Positions 2,610 to 39,805 of a stretch of 64,000 bases of DNA are shown here, one piece after another (within the stretch, counting starts at the first letter, position 1; every line of letters begins with the position of its first letter). This DNA comes from Acholeplasmataceae bacterium (lineage in GTDB: Bacteria; Bacillota_I; Bacilli_A; Acholeplasmatales; Acholeplasmataceae). The notes below the pieces were generated by a model that saw nothing but the letters and a program-made list of their open reading frames with translations, made no database searches and was not told the DNA's origin. The DNA is taken from assembly GCA_963675245.1 (NCBI GenBank), contig OY775910.1, positions 512,001-576,000 of the forward strand, written 5' to 3'. Position numbers and translations under genes: made by a program.

Positions 2610-3278
2610 GTGCGAATATTAATTGTTGAAGATGAAAAACACTTAAACGATTTATTACATGATTACATTGAAGAATCTTTTTCTGATGCCGAAATTGATC
2701 AAGTCTTTGATGGTATCACTGCTCTAGATGCAGTACATAATGCCCTATATGATTTGATCTTACTTGATGTTATGTTACCGCATATGAATGGATTTGATGT
2801 CTGCAGACATATTAGAGAAAATTCAGATGTTCCCATTATGATGCTCTCTGCATTAAGTGATGAAGAAAATCAATTAAAAGGATATAATCTCGGTATAGAT
2901 GATTACGTTACAAAACCTTACAGTCCTAAAATTGTGATTCAAAAGATATCTTCTGTCTTATCTCGATATGATCATAAATCGCCTAATCAATTAATGACTT
3001 ATGGCATCATATCGTATAATTTCGAGCAATACAAACTTACTATCAATCATCAACTTGTGTCTTTAAATAAAAAAGAGTGGGAATTATTTGTACTGTTTGT
3101 TCAACATATTGGTCGTGTTTTTTCAAGAGAAGAATTACTGAATCTAATTTGGGGATATGATTATTATGGTTTTGAAAGAACAGTCGATACCCATATCAAA
3201 CGTCTAAGACAAAAAATGGGTGACGCTTCATCCTACATTAAAACAGTTTACAAGTCTGGTTATAAATTCGAAAAATAA
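2610..3278 (+). CDS. OmpR-family response regulator
   Basis: ILIVEDE, LLDVMLP, DDYVTKPY receiver domain; winged helix RTVDTHIKRLR. Start moved to GTG 2610 after GGGGTGG RBS. Confidence 0.95.
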   Translation: MRILIVEDEKHLNDLLHDYIEESFSDAEIDQVFDGITALDAVHNALYDLILLDVMLPHMNGFDVCRHIRENSDVPIMMLSALSDEENQLKGYNLGIDDYVTKPYSPKIVIQKISSVLSRYDHKSPNQLMTYGIISYNFEQYKLTINHQLVSLNKKEWELFVLFVQHIGRVFSREELLNLIWGYDYYGFERTVDTHIKRLRQKMGDASSYIKTVYKSGYKFEK

Positions 3279-3299
3279 TCAATATAGGGAGGCGAACAT

Positions 3300-4703
3300 A
3301 TGAAAATAAACATTTTTTTCAAAACTTTTTTTGCATTATTTATTTCATTTTCGCTCGTTTTTATATTGAATTTATATATATCCTATCAACGCTTTTCACC
3401 TTTATATATCGAAGAAAATATTAGTCATGTAAAATCCATCATATTATCATCTGTTCCAGATATTTCAAATAGCACTCCTTTATCTGATACCGACCTTAGT
3501 CGTCTTTCAAGCGAAACAACGTTCTTACGTTATGATGGTACAATTACAGAAATGATTGGCCCAAATTATCTAGGTTTATCAGATATGCTTGATTTTGTTA
3601 TTGGCATTTATGATAGTGAAGATGCCATTGTTGAAGGTAATTTAATCTATCATACACTGAAGGTTGATGACATTTATCAAATCAACTATATTTATCAATT
3701 TGATGTCGGTGATTACTTAATTGTACAGACCCGTGTACAATCACTTGAAAATGTTGATGCAATACTTAATCGTATCAACTTTTCTCAATCAATCTATGCA
3801 TTCATCATCATCACTGCCATATCTATTATCATTTCATTGAATATTTCCAGACCCATCAAGAAAATTAACGATTATGCTAAAAAAATATCTAATTTAGATC
3901 TTCAAGGACAATTAAAACTGAATAGACGTGATGAATTTAAAGAGCTTGTCACTTCACTTAATGAAATGACATTCAATTTGAAGACAACTTATGTTAGTCT
4001 TCAAGAAGCTAATGATAAATTGTCTATAGATATTGATTTTGAAAAACAACAAGAAGAAAAAAGAAAGCAATTAATCATGATGATCAACCACGAAGTGAAA
4101 ACACCGCTAGCGGTGATGAAAGGCATGATTGAAGGTATGATTGATGGTGTTGGTAGATACAAGAACAAAGATAAGTATTTACGTGAACTTCTCACACAAA
4201 TTAATGTCATAGAAAGTATCACACAAGATTTAACATATTCATTACGACTTGAAGATAAAGTAAATAAAGAAACTGTTACGAATGCTACCTTGATAAATGA
4301 GCAATTGGATTCGCTAGAATTGTTTGCCCAACAACATCATGTTAAAATAAATAAAGATATTGATGCTTGCACTCTTTTGATTAATGAAGAATTATTTCTG
4401 ATTATGTGCTCTAATCTAATTAAAAATGCAATTATTTACAGTCAAGATAGGTTGATACATGTTTCTGGTAAGTCTATAGGTAATCAATATATTTTCACCG
4501 TTAAAAATAAAGGTGAAATTCCTGAATCAGAAATCCAAAAGCTTTTTGATCCCTTCTATCGTCTCAAACAAACTAAATCAAAAGGAACTGGTTTAGGTTT
4601 AAGCATTGTAAAACAAATTGCAGAATTATACAGTTATCCTTATAAGTTATTTAATGATAATGGAGAAGTTGTTGCAAAAGTACAAATTAAAATCAAAAAA
4701 TAG
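3300..4703 (+). CDS. Sensor histidine kinase (HAMP, HisKA, HATPase)
   Basis: Two TM segments, HAMP, H-box NHEVKTPL, N-box NLIKNA, G-box GTGLGL. Confidence 0.95.
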   Translation: MKINIFFKTFFALFISFSLVFILNLYISYQRFSPLYIEENISHVKSIILSSVPDISNSTPLSDTDLSRLSSETTFLRYDGTITEMIGPNYLGLSDMLDFVIGIYDSEDAIVEGNLIYHTLKVDDIYQINYIYQFDVGDYLIVQTRVQSLENVDAILNRINFSQSIYAFIIITAISIIISLNISRPIKKINDYAKKISNLDLQGQLKLNRRDEFKELVTSLNEMTFNLKTTYVSLQEANDKLSIDIDFEKQQEEKRKQLIMMINHEVKTPLAVMKGMIEGMIDGVGRYKNKDKYLRELLTQINVIESITQDLTYSLRLEDKVNKETVTNATLINEQLDSLELFAQQHHVKINKDIDACTLLINEELFLIMCSNLIKNAIIYSQDRLIHVSGKSIGNQYIFTVKNKGEIPESEIQKLFDPFYRLKQTKSKGTGLGLSIVKQIAELYSYPYKLFNDNGEVVAKVQIKIKK

Positions 4704-7355: not shown

Positions 7356-10300
7356 TTAATAATTAAATGGTTCTTCCGGTTCTTCTTGATACGTATTAGA
7401 ACGATCAAACTCAAATGAAGATTCCTTTAGAATACCCGTACCAGCAGGGATTAAACCACCGATAATGACGTTTTCTTTAAGACCATGAAGTTCATCTATT
7501 TTACCCTTAATCGCCGCGTCAGTCAAGATTCTTGTTGTTTCTTGGAATGATGCTGCTGATAAGAATGAATCAGATCTTAGTGATGCACGCGTGATACCTA
7601 ATAAGATAGGGCGACCAACCGCAGGTCTCTTACGTGCAAGGAATGCTTTCTTGTTTTCACGTTTGAATTCAGATACGGATACTTCAGTACCTGGTAATAA
7701 TTCTGTTTCACCTTCAGTGACGATGGTGATACGACGTAACATTTGTCTGATGATGAGCTCGATATGTTTATCAGAGATTTCAACACCTTGCGCACGATAA
7801 ACCTTTTGAACTTCTTCTAAGATATAGAGTTCAGCTGCTTCAGCAGAAACAACTCTTAAGAGTTCTTTAGGATTAATAGAACCAAGTGTTAGACGTTGAC
7901 CAGCTTTGACACTCGCATTCTTACGAACAAGAGATTCAACGTTTGGATCAATGGTGTACTTGTACTCTTTATCGTGTGCATCTGTGATCGTAACGATAGA
8001 TGAACCACCCCGTTGACGATCAATTGATTTAACCTTACCATCAACTTCTGATAGCACAGCTTTACCTTTAGGATTACGTGCTTCAAATAATTCTTGAATA
8101 CGTGGAAGACCTTGGGTAATATCTGATGCAGATGCCACCCCACCCGTGTGGAATGTACGCATGGTTAACTGTGTACCAGGTTCACCAATAGATTGCGCTG
8201 CAACAACCCCAACTGCTTCACCGACTTCAACAGGTGTGTTTGTAGCGAGGTTTCGACCGTAACATTTCGCGCAGACACCATTGTCTGAATTACAGGTTAA
8301 GTTTGATCTAATTTCAACTGCTTCAACACCGGCTTGAATCACTTGAGCACCAAGTTCATCAGTCACTAAACCGTTTCTTGGAACGATCATTTCTTTCGTC
8401 TTAGGATTAACAACGTCTTTCGCAACATAACGACCAACAATACGGTCATATAGTGGTACGATTTCTTTTGTTTCATCTTCTAAGATGGATCTCATGACAA
8501 CACCACGTTCAGTACCACAATCATCTTCAACAACGATGACATCTTGTGAAACGTCAACTAAACGACGTGTTAAGTATCCTGATTCAGCTGTTTTAAGCGC
8601 TGTATCGGTAGAACCTTTACGCGCACCGTGCGTTGAAATAAAGAATTCAGACACGGTTAAGCCTTCTCTAAATGACGCTTGGACAGGGACTTCAATAATA
8701 TCACCACGCGGGTTATTCATGAGTCCACGCATACCTGCTAATTGTGAGAAGTTTGAGGCATTACCACGGGCACCAGAGTCAGACATCATATAGATGTTGT
8801 TATCCGGATCAAATTCGCCCATTAAGCCAACTTGGATATCATCACGAGCTACTTGCCATTCTTTAATGACTAAGTCTTTACGTTCTTTATCTGTTAACCA
8901 ACCTTCATCGTACCATTCATTGACTTTAGCGATTTCTTCGTTTGCTTTTTCAATACGTTCATGTTTACCTGAGTAAACGTTAATATCAGCAAATGATACC
9001 GTTATACCAGCAACCGTTGAATATTTAAAGCCTAAGTCTTTTAATCTGTCAAGCATCTTTGATGTTTCAGAGATGTGTAGTTGCTTGAAGACTTGAGCAA
9101 TGATTTGTGATAAGAATTTCTTCTTGAATGGTGAAGGTACAGGTGTACTTTCTAAGAACTTTTTAGGATTCGTGCCTTTAGGCATGAAGTATGTATCAGG
9201 TGTCTTATTTTCTAAATTCGTGATCGTTGGTTCATTCAAATAAGGGAATGAAGAAGGTAGAATTCTGTTGAAAATAAGTTTACCAAATGTGGTGAGTAAA
9301 TATTTATCTCTTTGATCAGCAGTAAAGACTTGATTGATTGATTTAGGATCCACTAAAATTCTTGTATGTAAGCCGATTTCTTTGTGTTCAAAAGCCATTT
9401 CAGCCTCTGAAAAATCAAAGAAGAAATGTCCTTCATTTCTGTGTTTATGTGCATGTTCTTTTTGTTTCTCATCAGCACGATAACCACCAAATGGACGGTG
9501 AGCTTTTTCTTCAATCGTTAAGTAATAGTTACCTAAGACCATATCCTGTGATGGTGTAACAACTGGTTTACCATCTTTAGGGTTAAGAATATTGTTAGAG
9601 GCTAACATGAGCAATCTAGCTTCTGCTTGTGCTTCATTTGATAGTGGGACGTGAACAGCCATTTGGTCACCATCGAAGTCAGCGTTAAACGCTGGTGTAA
9701 CGAGTGGATGAAGGCGAATTGCTTTCCCATCAATTAATTTAGGTTCAAATGCTTGAATACCTAATCTGTGAAGCGTAGGTGCACGGTTAAGTAAGACTGG
9801 ATGTTCTTTAACAACCTTTTCTAAAGCTGCCCAAACATCATCATCCATACGGTCATACTTAGAGTTTGCATTCTTCTTAGAGTTTGCGTCTAAACCTAGT
9901 TGTTGTTGTAATTCTCTTAAGACGAATGGTTTGAAAAGAATAATAGCCATTTCACGTGGAATACCACATTGATACATTTCTAGGTCAGGACCAACGATAA
10001 TAACAGAACGACCAGAATAGTCAACACGTTTACCAAGTAAGTTTTGTCTGAAACGTCCTTGTTTACCACGTAACATATCAGATAATGATTTTAAGTGTCT
10101 ATTACGTTCAACTGCTGCTTTCTTACCACGTTTCGCGTTATCGAATAATGCGTCAACAGCTTCTTGTAACATACGTTTTTCATTCTTTGTGATGAGTCTT
10201 GGTGCCATTTGTTCTTTTTGTTTTTTAAGACGGTTATTACGGTTTAGAATACGACGGTATAAGTCATTTAAGTCAGTTGTTGCGAAACGACCACCATCTA

Positions 10301-32549: not shown

Positions 32550-32584
32550 TTAAAAGCCCCCTTTGGTTATCTAAATTATAACAC

Positions 32585-32690
32585 AAAAAAAGCGGCATTA
32601 TCTGCCGCTTTGCGTTTAATTTGCAATAAAGTCTGAATACGCATCGTTTGCGAATTCACTTAAAAAATAATCTGTTATATCATTGATAAC
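32585..32690. repeat. Direct repeat, left copy: terminator plus 3' end of the 38189-39805 gene
   Basis: 98/106 nt identical to 38158-38263 by manual alignment. Confidence 0.95.
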
Positions 32691-32727
32691 GGTTAAATTT
32701 AGAGGTTTCCTAATAGCAACCTTATAT

Positions 32728-32758
32728 ATTACTGGAGTCATGTACCTAAGTAGCGCCA
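32728..32758. repeat. 31-bp cassette-boundary motif, copy 1
   Basis: ATTACTGGAGTCATGTACCTAAGTAGCGCCA; 27/31 identical to copy 3. Confidence 0.8.
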
Positions 32759-32855
32759 CAATTTAAAATTCCTATTAATTTATATCATTCTAGCAACTAT
32801 GTATCCGTTTGTCGCATTAATCAAACAATCAAAATCCTAATTTAAATTATACAAA

Positions 32856-33143
32856 CTAATTGTCAATTTGTTTGTATAATATCAACAGGCATGTTTTCAT
32901 AAGATTATAAAAAATCAAATTTTCTATATCTTTAGAAACAAATTCTCCAATTCTTTTTTTGTTTTGGGCATCAATATTATAGTTGTCTAATTCTTGTCTG
33001 CTGATATTTTCTCCTGAGTATGCCCTACTAATAAGACCATAAATCGAATCTACCATTGTAATGTTTTTAACATTATCATAAAAATCATTCGGAGTATTCC
33101 AATTAAGGAATACTCTAAGTATTTGTTTTTCATTTTTATTCAT
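32856..33143 (-). CDS. Putative immunity protein
   Basis: Small ORF starting 6 nt after the stop of a toxin tip. Confidence 0.6.
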   Translation of the reverse strand: MNKNEKQILRVFLNWNTPNDFYDNVKNITMVDSIYGLISRAYSGENISRQELDNYNIDAQNKKRIGEFVSKDIENLIFYNLMKTCLLILYKQIDN

Positions 33144-33149
33144 ATTTTA

Positions 33150-33785
33150 TCACCATATTCCAAATGTAATAACTTTTCCTGCGGATGTAAATAATCCATT
33201 TAAACCATACCCAAAAAATTTAGTGTTTAATGTCCAAGAATGTTGTAATCCCTTATAACTAGATATTAATGAAAGTGCATTAGCATTTTGATTTGCAAAT
33301 CCTACCGCTTTATCTTTATAGCTAATGATATTACCAAAGCCTTTACCATATTTACCATAATGATGTTTCATGGATTGAAAACCTGATTTAAAAGTTCCCT
33401 TATCCCACATGCTGGCAGCTTTGGCTACTTTGAAAGCATTTGATGCAGCCCCAGTAACCCCTCCAATGAATGCTCCTGTCATAAAGCCATCAGCAAAACC
33501 GCTATAGAAACCTTCCCAACTGCCAGAACTTATACCACCAATGGTTCCTGATATTAATCCACCAGATATTGCACCAATTGCAGCACCTTTTAATGCACCA
33601 GATAGTATAAAGCCTGCAACTCCCCCAGCAGCTCCACCCGTTGCTACGGTAGCTATTGCAAGTGCAACAATAATCACTACACCAGCTACTATCTTTGCTT
33701 CATTACTCCAACTAAATGGATTCCACCACGCTTGTCCGGTGCTATCTATGTACATCACTGGAGTAATGTAGTCAGACATAACCAC
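33150..33785 (-). CDS. Orphan RHS C-terminal toxin module, probable RNase-type tip
   Basis: Begins TPVMYIDSTG (RHS core end), Gly/Ala hydrophobic linker, WDKGTF...HHYGKYG...GKVITF tip. Confidence 0.75.
   Translation of the reverse strand: MVMSDYITPVMYIDSTGQAWWNPFSWSNEAKIVAGVVIIVALAIATVATGGAAGGVAGFILSGALKGAAIGAISGGLISGTIGGISSGSWEGFYSGFADGFMTGAFIGGVTGAASNAFKVAKAASMWDKGTFKSGFQSMKHHYGKYGKGFGNIISYKDKAVGFANQNANALSLISSYKGLQHSWTLNTKFFGYGLNGLFTSAGKVITFGIW
33754..33784. repeat. 31-bp cassette-boundary motif, copy 2
   Basis: ATCACTGGAGTAATGTAGTCAGACATAACCA; 20/31 identical to copy 1, ungapped. Confidence 0.65.
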
Positions 33786-33814
33786 TGTAATAGATGGACG
33801 TGATTAGCAAATAT

Positions 33815-34240
33815 TTATGAAATTTTCTTATTTATTTCGTAATCCATGAATTTGTTTAAAGCTATTTTGGGTTCTTCTATTAACTCTAAGAAGAATCTTT
33901 TATCTTCAATCATCCATTAAGGCGCATATACATTCTTATATTTGATTGGTTGAAAATAACATACTCCACCACCACAAATTTGATAACCACCTTTGTATTT
34001 CTTTTCAAATACCCAATTCTCGTCAATTTCATCATCAATAATATTGAATTCATCACCTAATTGATAAAAACCTAATGTTGTTATTTGTTTTAAATAAATA
34101 AGTATGTATTTTTTTCGATGTGATTGCATAATTGCATAAACGTTAAATTCTTGAGAATAATTAAAATCAAGTCCAAAATAAATTGCATTATTCTCTTGAA
34201 ATTTATACATATCAACGATTCTTACTTTCATACGTTTCAT
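33815..34240 (-). pseudogene. Putative immunity gene with an internal stop
   Basis: The ORF stops at TAA 33917-33919 but the frame continues WMIEDKRFFLELIEEPKIALNKFMDYEINKKIS to TAA 33815. Confidence 0.65.
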
Positions 34241-34243
34241 CTC

Positions 34244-34738
34244 CTATTTAAGTTTAAAATCATACCACATTTGAAACGGATACCATTTAGGAAAATATCT
34301 ATTACCTACATAATGAACGGTATTACCATCAAAACTCATTTGATATTTTGTCCATCCTAACCATCCTGGCATTTTTGGATTTCTCATTGGAACTTTACCA
34401 TATAAGCTTGTTCCTGAATTTGGATATTTTTTTGCAGCATTCATAGTTATGCTTGATTTTAAATTATTAGGTTGTGTATTATCTGTCTTTCCATTACCCC
34501 ATATCACAAGATATTTGATATTTGGTAAGTCTTTAATGAAATCAAATGAATCAATTTCACCCGACCATTGATCAATAATCACTTTATCAATGCCTTTTTG
34601 TTTAATATAGTCAATTTGTCTGTCGTTATCTTTGGTGTCAATAATGATAGCTTCTTTGATGAGCGCTCCACCTTGATATTGAAAAATCGAGTAAAACCAA
34701 TAACCATCTCTCTTTTCGCATACTAATTCTTTATTCAT
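34244..34738 (-). pseudogene. Deletion chimera: LRR-like immunity N-terminus fused to a toxin C-terminus
   Basis: N-half ...SFDFIKDLPNIKYLVI (LRR-like); C-half QPNNLK...MRNPKMPGWLGWTKYQ...VHYVGN...DFKLK resembles polymorphic-toxin RNase tips. Confidence 0.55.
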
Positions 34739-34747
34739 AACCAGCTC

Positions 34748-34976
34748 CTATCTGCCCCAGTAATCATCTAAATATAACGTGAATTGATTATTTTGCCAAT
34801 AATATCGTCTGCCTAGTGACCATATTTTGTCATAGAACTCTCTGTTTCAACTTTTATATCCATATTCAACCATCCACATTAATAAATCTTCTCTCTTCAG
34901 GATTGTAATATCTGCTATTTAAGTAATATAACCCTACTTCTTCATCATATTGATATCCCCTATATCATTATGGATT
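34748..34976 (-). pseudogene. Degenerate RHS core fragment joined to a toxin C-terminal fragment
   Basis: NP**YRGYQYDEEVGLYYLNSRYYNPEERRFINVDG (34976-34869), then in another frame ...REFYDKIWSLGRRYYWQNNQFTLYLDDYWGR* abutting the next RBS. Confidence 0.85.
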
Positions 34977-35067
34977 TCTATTACCACAATCAGATATGAT
35001 ATAACCTGTAGTTTTCTAAATATTTATAATCTTTTTAAATTTAAAGCCTTTTTTTATGAAACTATTA

Positions 35068-36048
35068 TCATAGCTTAACTAAATCATAGTCCGAAAGGTC
35101 TATATTCACTACTAAACTATTATCTCTACATAACGTATATTTACTGTCTGCAGTTTTTAACAAACTTTTAATTAGTTCTCCAAAATTTTCAAACTCAATT
35201 AATGCTATCATATGTCTTTCATTTAATTCTCTAATTTCAATCTCTCCTTTTGTCAAATAGATTTCATCTAATTTTCCAAGAAAACTAATTTTTTTATATC
35301 CAAGACTCGGGTTACGTGAATACATAAATCTAAGATTATATTTATTCTCTGATGTCCAATGAAGTGCTGGAAAGTTAGTTCTACGTTTTGAATGATAACC
35401 TTCTTCAAGAGCAGGAATATCTTTCATAAATTCCAATGTCTGTATGTCATCCACACTATAGTAATTGTATAAATAAACTGGGACTTCATTAGAAACGGCT
35501 ATACAACCTTCTCTTTGGCTCAAATCAACAATAAAATACCCGTAGCAAGCTTTTCCTTCTTGATGAATGATATCACATTCAATTCTGTACGCATAGACAC
35601 CATGATTCACTAATTTTTTTATGTTTTTGAAAAAGGAATCCGATCTAAGTTTCTTTTCAGCTACCATTTCTTTATCTAATGCTAAAAACATTTTTTTTGC
35701 TTGATTTAGCATTTGCTCATGTGTTGTTTTAGGAGCATAGTTAAGATCTAAATAGTTCTCATAAGGATCAAATAGCATAAACTCATCTTGTCTATTTACT
35801 AAATCAATATATGCTTGTTTAGCTTTCTCTTTGACTTCTGGAATAAGTCTACCAAGTTCCCACTGATAATATCCTAGTGATAACCATACCATTATTGGTA
35901 TGAATGATTTATCCATCAATATATTTTCATAGTCTTCGATGGTTAGTTTTGTTGCCTTTTCACTAGTTTCCCCGCTTTTTAAATAATCAAAATATGCTAA
36001 ACATATTTCTTCTACCATTAAATTTTCAAAATAGTATTTTACCCGCAT
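35068..36048 (-). CDS. Putative immunity protein for the GIY-YIG toxin
   Basis: Starts 4 nt after the toxin stop; helical N-domain with WLSLGYYQWELGRL. Confidence 0.6.
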   Translation of the reverse strand: MRVKYYFENLMVEEICLAYFDYLKSGETSEKATKLTIEDYENILMDKSFIPIMVWLSLGYYQWELGRLIPEVKEKAKQAYIDLVNRQDEFMLFDPYENYLDLNYAPKTTHEQMLNQAKKMFLALDKEMVAEKKLRSDSFFKNIKKLVNHGVYAYRIECDIIHQEGKACYGYFIVDLSQREGCIAVSNEVPVYLYNYYSVDDIQTLEFMKDIPALEEGYHSKRRTNFPALHWTSENKYNLRFMYSRNPSLGYKKISFLGKLDEIYLTKGEIEIRELNERHMIALIEFENFGELIKSLLKTADSKYTLCRDNSLVVNIDLSDYDLVKL

Positions 36049-36052
36049 ATAA

Positions 36053-36586
36053 TTATCTTCCTCCTAATTTTTCCCATAATAACCTTAATTCACTATCTAT
36101 TTTGTTAAGAATTAAAGATCCAGGATATCGTCTGTTTGATACACTTTTCCTTAAATTATATGGTAACATTTTGTCTGAGAATGGACTCACATCTATAATA
36201 TTATCCAAACCATGTGATAATATTAATCCCGTTTCCAATACACGTGCCTGTGATTCACTCATAGCACTTGAATAATTCATCTTTATAAATTGTCCAAACC
36301 TATTTTTATGGTCACGTAATCTTGTCTTTGGATTTTTTGTAATACCAACATAAAACACATTATTGTGTTCATCAAGTAGCGTATAGACATAATAATTGTC
36401 TTTGTTCCTTGCTGAATGTGCCGTCTCAATCGCCTCAGCGATTTCGACAACTGCAGGTTTAATTGCTACTGATGCTATAATTGCGATTATAAAGATTATT
36501 CCCCAAACGACTAAATCATCTGCAATTGCTATATTTCCTGTTGGATCTGTGAACATTACTGGATTAATGTACATATGTAGCGCCAT
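36053..36586 (-). CDS. Orphan RHS C-terminal toxin module with GIY-YIG nuclease
   Basis: NPVMFTDPTG, TM segment, YVYTL...FYVGITKNPKTRLRDH...ARVLE...YN. Confidence 0.85.
   Translation of the reverse strand: MALHMYINPVMFTDPTGNIAIADDLVVWGIIFIIAIIASVAIKPAVVEIAEAIETAHSARNKDNYYVYTLLDEHNNVFYVGITKNPKTRLRDHKNRFGQFIKMNYSSAMSESQARVLETGLILSHGLDNIIDVSPFSDKMLPYNLRKSVSNRRYPGSLILNKIDSELRLLWEKLGGR
36555..36585. repeat. 31-bp cassette-boundary motif, copy 3
   Basis: ATTACTGGATTAATGTACATATGTAGCGCCA. Confidence 0.8.
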
Positions 36587-36705: not shown

Positions 36706-37140
36706 TCAATCACTCTTAACCTTGATACCGTAAAATTGTCCTGTCTTGACAATTTGTACCTCAATGACTTCTGCTAACGCTCTAAATATTCTGTTCTTGT
36801 TCCACCAAAAAAATGGATTTTTGAAGAAGAAGATTTTCTCGTGCTGTTCCCAGATACCTTTTTCTGTTTCAAATACATTAATTTTGTATTTGTGACGACC
36901 CATAAATTCCGGTTCTACATACATTTTCAAAAAATCAATACTATTGAAGTACGCAAAGTTTAAATCCCCTCTTGCTTCAATGCTTAAAACAGAGAAACAA
37001 CCATTTTCGTTATAATAACTATACGTATCTAAAGATGCGTTTTTACCCAAATAGTTTTCAAATATATGACTTGAATATTTCATGCCGTATTTAACACACA
37101 AAAAATCTAAATTTTTTTTAATTATTTCTTCCATAAACAA
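36706..37140 (-). CDS. Putative immunity protein
   Basis: GGAG RBS immediately after the stop of the upstream toxin gene. Confidence 0.6.
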   Translation of the reverse strand: MFMEEIIKKNLDFLCVKYGMKYSSHIFENYLGKNASLDTYSYYNENGCFSVLSIEARGDLNFAYFNSIDFLKMYVEPEFMGRHKYKINVFETEKGIWEQHEKIFFFKNPFFWWNKNRIFRALAEVIEVQIVKTGQFYGIKVKSD

Positions 37141-37144
37141 CTCC

Positions 37145-38035
37145 TTATAGATAATAATTTAGTGGCATTTTCCAAATATGCCTAGTTCTCCATATACCCA
37201 CAATCAGTTTTTCGGTACCATAATACAGTCCTCTTCCTCTATGTAAAGTAGTCATACCGATATCAATGACAGTATAACCTTTTCTGAGAGTATTGAGCAT
37301 CCAATTGCCATTATGTATAACTGACCTTGTGGTATTATATAACTGTCCTAAACCTTTTGCTCCTGATTTATAACCTTTCCATGCATCATAAATATTATCG
37401 GATATCCCCATTAGACGGGCAACGTCAGTGACTCTATCTACATCTCTACCGATCATGGTAACTCTGCCAAAATCACTTATATCATCTGATTTGATATTAT
37501 CTTTTGTTGAAACACTTGCATTTGATGATTGACTACCAACAAGTAGCCAATTAACCTCATAATCTGACATTTTAAGTTTGATATTTTGACTTGTGATGTC
37601 TTTGGGAAATTTGATATCGAATTTATTATCTTTATTTTTATATGTATTTGTACTTCCATCAAAATCTAGTGAGTTATCAATGTCAAACCATTCATCGCCA
37701 ACTTGATAACGAACTGCACCATCATATAAGACAACCTCATAACTGCCATCCTGCTTTCTGAAATGTTTTTCACTTTCTGTTCTTCTCGACGTGTCTTCAG
37801 CGACAATTGGAATGTCCTTTTTATCTATATCAACATTCTTAATCTTTTCTGTTTCCACATTTTCAACAATGTCATCAACAACAGGTTCATCTTGATTCGC
37901 AAACACTTGAAGTGGAATCAAATTAAAAAGCATCGCGATTAACACAATGGTTGCGATAGCTCTTTGCATACTTTAAATTCTTCTTGTTCTCACAATAATT
38001 TCATGTGAATCAAGACCACTAAACATTCTTTTCAT
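37145..38035 (-). pseudogene. Internally deleted secreted RHS/WapA-like toxin gene (signal peptide and N-domain fused to the toxin tip)
   Basis: ATG 38035 with GGGGG RBS; in-frame TAA at 37973-37975; signal peptide ending LQVFA; EDTSRRTESEKHFRKQDGSY...WFDIDNSL N-domain; no YD repeats; tip MIGRD...NGNWM...GYTVIDIG. Confidence 0.75.
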
Positions 38036-38157
38036 TTATTTAGCCCCCTATAAAACGATTGATTTTAGTTGTACATCGTTGTTGTTATTTCTTATATCAT
38101 ATCACTATAAAAATGCTTTGTAAACGACAAATATGTCATAGTCGTGATTAATTTATA

Positions 38158-38263
38158 AAAAAAAGCGGCATTATCTGCCGCTTTGCGTTTAATTTGCGAT
38201 TAAGTCTGAATACGCATCGTTTGCGAATTCACTTGAGAAATAATCTGTCATATCAGCAATAAC
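38158..38263. repeat. Direct repeat, right copy, including terminator AAAGCGGCA-TTATC-TGCCGCTTT
   Basis: Matches 32585-32690. Confidence 0.95.
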
Positions 38264-39805
38264 TGGTGCAGTTAAATCTTGTGCAACATCATTGATCACG
38301 ACACTCTCAACGCCAACAACACCATAAACATGTGCTAATTCGCGAGATGCTTTTCCGATAAGGCTACCTACATTGAGAACAACATCAGCAGCTGCAGATA
38401 CCGTAATACCTGTATCACCTGGAACCCATACAACAGCGTTTAGTGCATATGGTGGTTGATAATTCCCAACTAAACCACCAACGAAGAATCTCTTGTAAAC
38501 GCCTGTGTCAGCATCAGCAGATACATGTTCAACGTTAATATTACCAGCAAAGAAACCATCTTTAACTTTTAATGAACTGTTACCGATTAAACCACCAACA
38601 TATAATGTATAGGTACCAGTTGTGAATGTTTCTGCTAGCTGTATATCAACATAGACATCAATATTACCAGTCACAACAACATCACTAACATTACTTGAAT
38701 TTTCTGAAGCTAATTTATCACCAATTGCCCCACCGATAGCTACTTTGACTTGATCTTCATCATCAAATGCATCAATATAGGTTTGATAGGATAAATCAAT
38801 ATCAGCGTTCACTTCATGAATTTCTGAATCGACTTCTGAAAAACCGACGACTCCACCCATTTTAACAAGATAACCCTCATTATTATCGATTGAAGTTGTT
38901 TCAAGTGAGATGGAAGAGTTTGAAATGGTTGCCCCATTAAGTGTTCCTTTTAATTCACCAGCAATCCCACCAATATATACAAAATCATCTGATGATGATG
39001 TGATGTAATAATGACTGTTTGTGACATGAACATTCTCAATGGAGACATTGCTTGATGCCACATATCCAAATAAGAATCCGATGCGAGCGAGATTACTAAT
39101 CGCTTGTGGTGCTTCCAGCGTACCAATCGTTACATGATCAACTGTAAGATTAGACACATTAGCTGCAGAACTCACGTAACCAAAGACACCAATATAATAA
39201 TAATTACTATCAGGGTTTGTCGTTGAATTTGATGTTGTAATATTAATGTTACTTAATGTGTGGTTTTGGCCATCAAATGTGCCAGAAAAATATGTTGTAT
39301 CAAATGGTGAAATATAATCGATTCCTTCAAAGTCAAGATCGTTATCTAGCACGTAATCCGCACCACGATATGCGTCCATTGCTAGAAATTCTTCAACTGT
39401 TGAAATGTGAATTGTACCGATTGTTTGGAATGTAAATCGTTCAACAGCAATTACATCTCGATCTACAGTGGCTTCTACAATAATATAATAAGATTGTTCT
39501 AAGCCTAATCCTGCAAATGTAATGGTTGCCCCATCAATTGCATAATCTCCAGTAGTGCTCTTGCTAAAACTTCTTGAAGATATCGCTTCATCGTCAGCAT
39601 TATATAAGCGCGCATAAATTGTGCCTGTGATTTCATCTTCAGGATCATCAACAGTCAGTTTGACTGTAATGCTATTTTGATTAATTGATTCATCCGTAAA
39701 TGATGCTGTAATGGCAGTTTCATCATCAATCACAGTACCTTCTTTACATGCAACTAATGCAAATAAACTTACAATGGTTAATAAAATCAATACAAATTTC
39801 TTCAT
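38189..39805 (-). CDS. Surface lipoprotein with GLUG/ZmpA-type beta-helix repeats
   Basis: Lipobox LVAC; YVLDNDLDF, FSGTFDGQNHTLSN, repeated (Y/F)VGGL(I/V)G. Confidence 0.8.
   Translation of the reverse strand: MKKFVLILLTIVSLFALVACKEGTVIDDETAITASFTDESINQNSITVKLTVDDPEDEITGTIYARLYNADDEAISSRSFSKSTTGDYAIDGATITFAGLGLEQSYYIIVEATVDRDVIAVERFTFQTIGTIHISTVEEFLAMDAYRGADYVLDNDLDFEGIDYISPFDTTYFSGTFDGQNHTLSNINITTSNSTTNPDSNYYYIGVFGYVSSAANVSNLTVDHVTIGTLEAPQAISNLARIGFLFGYVASSNVSIENVHVTNSHYYITSSSDDFVYIGGIAGELKGTLNGATISNSSISLETTSIDNNEGYLVKMGGVVGFSEVDSEIHEVNADIDLSYQTYIDAFDDEDQVKVAIGGAIGDKLASENSSNVSDVVVTGNIDVYVDIQLAETFTTGTYTLYVGGLIGNSSLKVKDGFFAGNINVEHVSADADTGVYKRFFVGGLVGNYQPPYALNAVVWVPGDTGITVSAAADVVLNVGSLIGKASRELAHVYGVVGVESVVINDVAQDLTAPVIADMTDYFSSEFANDAYSDLIAN

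Follow-up and report, generated by a model that had tools for sequence, protein, structure and literature searches.

Results

The motif and the locus that holds it

The DNA analysed here is a window of 64,000 nucleotides, positions 512,001–576,000 of contig OY775910.1 in assembly GCA_963675245.1 (coordinates are those of the window unless another sequence is named, and the source genome is labelled G000). On its minus strand lies an island of displaced RHS toxin tips and candidate immunity genes, in which a 31-base motif, the subject of this study, recurs three times. From high to low coordinates, the island and its borders comprise a 538-amino-acid (aa) lipoprotein gene, a 274-aa open reading frame (ORF), a small ORF, motif copy 3 with a GIY-YIG toxin, a 326-aa ORF, a remnant of an RHS core, a copy of an intact gene's tip and immunity gene, motif copy 2 with a 211-aa toxin, a 95-aa ORF, motif copy 1 and a second lipoprotein tail. 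There is no working RHS gene among them; the locus is a graveyard of tips.

The three copies are at 32728–32758 (copy 1), 33754–33784 (copy 2) and 36555–36585 (copy 3), all on the minus strand, where a preliminary description of this DNA had placed them, and copies 1 and 3 indeed match at 27/31 positions, differing at four. Shuffling the window yielded no match to a pattern that was itself derived from these copies. Each copy contains an in-frame ATG or GTG and starts a reading frame, and each has a small ORF 40–120 bases ahead of it in the position of an immunity gene, as previously described; the immunity role is assigned by position only, these ORFs having no family match. We use the term handle for the orphan-type junction sequence at the start of a toxin ORF, and class A for handles of the 31-base motif type, to which all three copies belong. 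Copy 3 (peptide ALHMYINPVM) is composed of a 23-base left arm beginning at the in-frame ATG, then CC, then AGTAATG, with a palindromic core at about 36552–36570. In copy 2 (peptide VMSDYITPVM) the palindromic core, at 33751–33769, reads ACATTACT-CC-AGTGATGTA. Copy 1 encodes ALLRYMTPVI.

Copies 2 and 3 continue as TPVMYIDSTG and NPVMFTDPTG, that is, with the PxxxxDxxG motif of the core end, and are followed by toxin ORFs and then small ORFs, so that both head orphan tip/immunity modules in which the immunity gene is recognized by position. The orphan toxin ORF that starts at copy 3 (177 aa, 36053–36586, minus strand) has a DPTG cleavage-type motif and, besides a hydrophobic linker, a GIY-YIG nuclease domain (PF01541, E 1.8e-8), the only match returned by family searches of the window's toxins and immunity ORFs. 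Its candidate immunity gene (326 aa, 35068–36048, minus strand) is assigned by position only and has no family match. The orphan toxin ORF that starts at copy 2 (211 aa, 33150–33785, minus strand) is about 90% identical over at least its first 120 bases to the tip of the intact RHS gene of a congener, G169, and precedes a candidate immunity gene of 95 aa (32856–33143, minus strand), again by position only. Copy 1 is truncated and has no toxin; 12–14 bases past its CC the reading frame continues straight into a duplicated lipoprotein tail.

The G000 genome, a single contig of 1.63 Mb, holds five copies of the motif at up to 3 mismatches. The two outside the window (genome positions 946281–946311 and 947521–947551) are both just downstream of the sole intact RHS gene, which encodes 2336 aa and whose core end reads ...NMYAYCANNPVMYLDISG. 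RHS gene material accompanies the copies at both loci, an RHS N-terminal fragment and a core remnant in the window array and the intact gene at the other. Comparison with that gene bore out the earlier statement that the right half of the motif encodes (N/T)PV(M/I), the last residues of the core; agreement between the motif and the intact G000 core is confined to the last ~11 bases (AAT-CCAGTGATG).

The left arm is foreign to intact RHS cores

We searched 172 genomes of the family for the motif pattern at up to 2 mismatches, with the reversed pattern as control. The pattern occurred at 38 places in 21 genomes from 5 genera, whereas the reversed control gave 6 single matches. Among 33 distinct matches the upstream frame was closed within 1–37 codons in every case, and 31 opened an orphan toxin ORF, the other 2 being chance matches. 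By comparison, all 31 long-frame RHS core ends in the family read N(L/M)YxYxxNNP(V/I), and the 23-base left arm was present in none of these 31 frames. The arm itself falls into subtypes (VMSDYIT, ALHMYMT, LGYRHMT, VLYRSIT and others), in each of which it is two codons shorter than its core counterpart, and an in-frame NTG marks the left edge of every handle. Because all 31 long core frames end in NNP(V/I), the motif is specific to orphans: its left arm is foreign to the core, and its right end is the ordinary N-P-V-M core end. The preliminary description had likewise held that the left half is not the usual core sequence and that the motif is a discrete cassette-boundary junction absent from intact RHS genes, and had proposed the scan of this genome and its relatives that bears both points out.

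A second class of orphan handle keeps exactly 18 bases of true core (GCATAYTGTGCAAACAAT) left of the CC, with unrelated DNA upstream, so that its edge is 5 bases shorter than the 23-base arm. It was seen at loci L062 (the G169 array), L063, L065, L066, L098 and L099.

Linkage to a large serine recombinase in relatives

The array of G169 contains a 530-aa ORF for a large serine recombinase (LSR), the stop codon of which overlaps the start codon of the next handle (TAATG). The protein has Resolvase, Recombinase, Zn_ribbon_recom and DUF4368 domains. Among solved structures the best relative is TnpX (catalytic domain, PDB 2mhc; E 3e-39), with YokA/SprA as a further one, and NCBIfam gave only sub-threshold CcrB and XisF matches. 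Homologues were found in the family and across the class. Among 26 distinct LSR copies with a complete C-terminus and at least 42% identity to the two queries, a handle lies 0 to ~130 bases downstream of the LSR C-terminus in 24 (18 recognized by pattern, six by eye), the two without a downstream handle being L107 and L113; among the 14 rows at 40% identity or less, none has a handle. Two spacings recur: the handle either begins at the LSR stop codon or lies ~100 bases on, past a hairpin with a T run and a TGnTATAAT box. The left-arm subtype tracks the LSR lineage, and the 31-mer of copy 2 is identical to the sequence directly after an LSR stop codon in genome G076. The sample is biased in that the loci behind several of the counts, a figure of 22/52 included, were fetched for holding an LSR or the motif. 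Overall, the link to a site-specific recombinase that the preliminary description had suspected is found in relatives, with the correction that the enzyme is a TnpX-like LSR and neither a tyrosine nor an Xer-type recombinase.

Overlap between the LSR stop and the start of the displaced toxin (TAATG, TAGTG) was observed at L083/L062 (G169), L085 (G076), L116 (G465) and others; in this way the unit may keep the displaced toxin–immunity pair expressed. At L097 (G072:C42) the handle (MLGYRHITPVMYIY...) that follows an LSR gene at 8643–10247 leads, where the array ends, into sequence that encodes no toxin, much as copy 1 does. At L102 (G059:C1) an insertion-sequence-type transposase pair (2739–3976) is situated just upstream of the LSR unit and apparently cuts off the toxin of that unit.

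Symmetry of the site

The junction forms a near-palindrome, ACAT(T/G)ACT-CC-AGT(G/A)ATGT, with 9-2-9 geometry, its centre being the proline codon's CC and its left arm mirroring the right side. Around this centre the window copies match at 7/9 (copy 1), 8/9 (copy 2) and 7/9 (copy 3) arm positions. The mean is 6.8/9 over 36 class A handles, three or four false positives among them, as against 3.6/9 over 18 short core-type handles and 3.3/9 over 31 intact cores, and a scan of possible centres gave one sharp peak, at the CC. The 11-6-11 dyad that had earlier been read in copy 2 does exist (7/11, counted by hand), but across copies that centre averages 3.8/9, not above other offsets. In a sample of 401 genomes of the class, the 19-base palindromic core (up to 1 mismatch) was found in 14, from four families, and its reversed control in none; its copies often come in clusters of 3–6, and many of those in other families are perfect 8-2-8 palindromes. 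Imperfect inverted half-sites flanking a central dinucleotide are the arrangement of LSR attachment sites, and a near-palindrome of this kind is what would be expected of a site bound by a recombinase dimer.

In the handle just after the LSR at L106 (G369:C33), two extra bases (CT or TC) stand precisely at the CC centre and put the displaced toxin out of frame.

Units and their edges

Arrays in relatives start with the RHS core and its tip, after which come an immunity gene, an LSR gene and a handle that heads a further tip and immunity gene; in some arrays there is a second LSR unit. In genome G448 the RHS gene is intact (at least 2195 aa), and behind it lie a tip, an immunity gene and an LSR gene and then a handle with the displaced tip, which is the state that the mechanism proposed below would predict. 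A search of 71 genomes of G448's family for a before/after pair involving its displaced toxin gave just two distant orphan matches.

The edges of such units coincide with the site in independent genomes, as do those of LSR elements with their attachment sites. A 3.37-kb unit common to G084 and G049, which belong to different genera, is 100% identical from the AATAAT-CC of the core end onwards, the cores upstream of it being just ~65–75% alike (by eye in the alignment), and its right end lies 3 bases past the motif. In two further genome pairs the shared blocks end 11 and 17 bases after the CC. From T-CC on, the toxin of copy 2 shares ~90% identity with two sequences of G169, the tip attached to its intact core and an orphan in its array, and thus occurs with three left contexts that meet at T-CC: the intact core of G169, the arm in the window and a different arm in the G169 array. 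From the unit edges in the three genome pairs and this three-way junction, the exchange point would be placed between 1 base left and 11 bases right of the CC.

Other features of the island

The remaining parts of the island are all on the minus strand. A stretch at 33917–34738 duplicates, at 97% DNA identity, the immunity gene of the intact RHS gene and the C-terminal half of that gene's toxin tip; the tip part lies within an ORF at 34244–34738, and a block of this homology, 34490–33733, extends through copy 2. The immunity part (33917–34240) is ended early by a stop and encodes 107 aa, compared with 141 aa at genome positions 945825–946250 of G000. The broken RHS-associated core remnant (YYLNSRYYNPEERRFINVDG) at 34872–34988 contains two stops and matches positions 11–49 of TIGR03696 (39.4 bits). 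Within the feature at 36706–37969, the 274-aa ORF (37145–37969) consists of a signal peptide and an RHS N-terminal segment joined directly to a toxin-like C-terminus, the entire RHS shell having been deleted. Its N-terminal part matches the starts of full-length RHS genes in G165, G166, G167, G170 and G171, its C-terminal part matches an orphan in G169, and it is followed by a candidate immunity gene (36706–37140, by position).

The island occupies 5.5 kb between direct repeats of ~120 bases that are ~90% identical. The left repeat (38149–38267) takes in the 3' end of the 538-aa lipoprotein gene (~25 codons and the stop) and a terminator hairpin; the right one (32572–32693) comprises an orphaned lipoprotein tail and an identical hairpin, with weaker homology reaching ~32720, adjoining copy 1. 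In G163 the site is empty, the lipoprotein gene, terminator and a DUF2779 gene adjoining one another, and in five other congeners the gap is just 1.7–1.9 kb. The syntenic island of G169 shows no duplication of the lipoprotein tail. The repeats would fit a single homologous crossover with a circle that carried a lipoprotein-tail segment.

A promoter scan of the window gave 35 matches where shuffles gave 35.5, and the boxes that precede copies 1 and 3 by ~30 bases are accordingly without statistical weight. The public runs that hold this stretch are assembled contigs, three from one sample and one from a low-depth second sample. The single joint 32758->33751 among them is no excision: it arose because the contig that covers the other RHS locus maps to both handles.

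Discussion

We consider it probable that the motif is an attR-type junction, a half-site plus crossover, left by site-specific recombination that swaps RHS toxin tips. The anatomy of the motif, its absence from intact cores, its linkage to an LSR and the unit edges at the site are shown by sequence comparison; that the LSR catalyses the exchange, that crossover takes place at the CC and that events ran in the direction described here is what we infer from them. The mobile unit of relatives would consist of a new toxin tip, its immunity gene, the TnpX-like LSR gene and, after the LSR stop, the 23-base left arm. Such a unit would recombine with the end of an RHS core, at the CC within the proline codon of N-P-V-M, and would fuse the new tip in frame to the core. 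The old tip would be displaced downstream, now headed by the left arm of the unit plus CC-AGTGATG, which together make up the motif, and the arm would supply it with a start codon, overlapping the LSR stop in many copies. The LSR sits inside the arrays of relatives as part of the mobile unit, and in this respect the earlier suggestion of a recombinase encoded elsewhere, acting at a fixed integron-style site, is not supported.

Several findings weigh against this interpretation. The LSR adjoins only 10 of the 38 pattern matches in the family, so that most handles are unlinked to it. Copy 1 joins non-RHS DNA 12–14 bases right of the CC, outside the interval deduced for the crossover, and the sharp 18-base edge of the short core-type handles is not explained by the model. 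The second unit of G049 shares with G007 the LSR module, with different cargo upstream, which a simple fixed unit does not account for. No recombination event, circle or within-species pair of empty and filled sites was seen, the public runs being assembled contigs. G000 itself has no serine recombinase and no fragment of one: there was no PF00239 match, and tblastn returned nothing below E 0.26 and nothing near either locus. Because the LSR is absent, we read the five copies of G000 as relics; they are probably scars of past insertions, or cassettes once dependent on an LSR acting in trans, and inactive now.

The alternative that survives best, although we think it unlikely, is that the LSR is a selfish passenger that lands at a pre-existing palindromic handle and does not move the cassettes, the handle serving, for example, as a translation start or leader of small toxins. 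The pair formed by G049 unit 2 and G007, which have the LSR module alone in common, speaks for this reading, as do the many handles without an LSR, the in-frame NTG at every left edge and the TGnTATAAT box ~35 bases upstream in some subtypes. Promoter-like matches in the window are, however, no more frequent than in shuffles. In three genome pairs the left arm belongs to the shared block, which does not end until past the CC, so it is with the LSR that the arm moves rather than with the toxin behind it, and its subtype follows the LSR lineage. Between G084 and G049, the toxin and immunity gene travel with the LSR too, in a block whose left edge is the CC site of the core.

Slightly less probable still is the view that the motif is a short core-end remnant, kept by orphan tips after homologous C-terminal displacement, with a left half that has diverged and become two codons shorter, (N)LY(A/R)Y(C/I)--(N/T)PVM. 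The right 11 bases are core end, some subtypes read ALYRY or VLYRS and so resemble NLYAY, and the last ~20 positions of TIGR03696 match some orphan N-termini. Homologous exchange via circles is proposed by Jackson et al. (2009; PMC2935791), and the 120-base direct repeats around the window island are what a homologous single crossover would give. Yet the left arm is found in none of the 31 long core frames; the same left edge recurs in dozens of cassettes despite unrelated DNA upstream, abuts the LSR stop codon and belongs to an arm that mirrors the right side around the CC, which coding constraint does not require. In addition, handle and resident core have just ~12 bases in common, too few for efficient RecA exchange.

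The model of the preliminary description, an integron-like stacking of cassettes at an 11-6-11 site by a tyrosine (Xer/IntI-type) recombinase whose gene lies elsewhere, is very improbable: there are six tyrosine recombinase genes (PF00589) in G000, the dyad can be counted in copy 2, and immunity-gene arrays beside XerC/D or XerD-like recombinases are known (Zhang et al. 2012, PMC3482391; Ross et al., preprint 10.1101/471110), but all six genes are at least 46 kb from both RHS loci, neither of which is headed by a tyrosine integrase or has a XerD-like recombinase at its 5' end followed by co-directional immunity genes, the 11-6-11 dyad is not conserved across copies, and among the listed ORFs of relatives' arrays, where no tyrosine-recombinase model scan was run, an LSR is present and no tyrosine recombinase is apparent.

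Returning to LSR-mediated tip exchange, a wider and more tentative proposal, which might well hold although we stop short of calling it probable, is that TnpX-like LSR 'tip transposons' in several families of the class deliver toxin–immunity cargo into the last codons of RHS genes and so re-arm them in frame by site-specific recombination, that cassettes lacking an LSR but bounded by the same half-site are moved in trans, and that the window copies would still serve for docking or excision once an element brings the enzyme into the cell. If this is true, the arrays would be the serine-recombinase counterpart of an integron. A dedicated serine recombinase with a codon-precise site where core and tip meet would give an enzymatic and testable mechanism to the acquisition of tips by RHS and other polymorphic toxin genes, so far explained by homologous recombination. 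It would also account for the fixed, non-core start of orphan tips here, and would define both a new kind of small mobile element, the cargo of which is a weapon tip, and a natural system for in-frame swapping of C-terminal domains. In the literature that we searched, with subscription journals outside its coverage, no paper ties a serine recombinase to RHS tip exchange.

Orphan tip/immunity arrays at RHS loci were reportedly also described by Koskiniemi and colleagues in 2014. A close parallel is RHS C-terminal displacement with arrays of orphan tips and immunity genes, which likewise has an intact RHS gene followed by stacked, displaced tips and immunity genes that begin at a core-end motif, new tips pushing the old ones downstream (Jackson et al. 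2009; PMC2935791). In the present system, by contrast, the junction is a fixed 23-base non-core arm plus CC, and the arrays of relatives contain an LSR gene. The rAID-1 arrays, described as XerD-linked and integron-like (Ross et al., preprint 10.1101/471110), and the polyimmunity loci that XerC/D genes adjoin (Zhang et al. 2012; PMC3482391) resemble the present system in that genes for interbacterial conflict are arrayed, with repeats in the spaces between them and a recombinase gene linked to the array. In those loci a single XerD-like tyrosine recombinase heads the array, which consists mainly of immunity genes and occurs in Bacteroidales (10.1101/471110; PMC3482391); here, by contrast, a serine recombinase lies inside the units, whole toxin tips move and the site is within coding sequence.

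With respect to the enzyme, the TnpX/TndX LSRs of Tn4451 and Tn5397 stand nearest: TnpX is the closest solved relative of the array LSR, DUF4368 is shared, and in both cases the recombinase gene is at the end of a small element. The cargo of elements of the Tn4451/Tn5397 type is resistance or conjugation genes, and their insertion sites are loosely defined, whereas here a toxin tip with its immunity gene is carried and the target is a codon-precise site in an RHS gene, with in-frame fusion. Sites inside a gene, at the border between a constant N-terminal and alternative C-terminal parts, are also used by the serine invertases (Gin/Cin/Min/Pin) that switch the C-termini of tail fibres and by the R64 shufflon. 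Those systems invert the DNA between inverted sites, rely on small invertases or on a tyrosine recombinase, and draw on segments that form a closed set. The present one differs in having direct sites throughout, a large serine recombinase as its enzyme and imported cargo. Finally, LSR elements of the SPbeta type share with the RHS units insertion in a coding sequence and a recombinase gene adjoining the junction. Insertion of the prophage SPbeta, by SprA in spsM, splits and inactivates the gene until excision, while insertion of the units described here is proposed to keep the RHS gene whole, with a new C-terminus.

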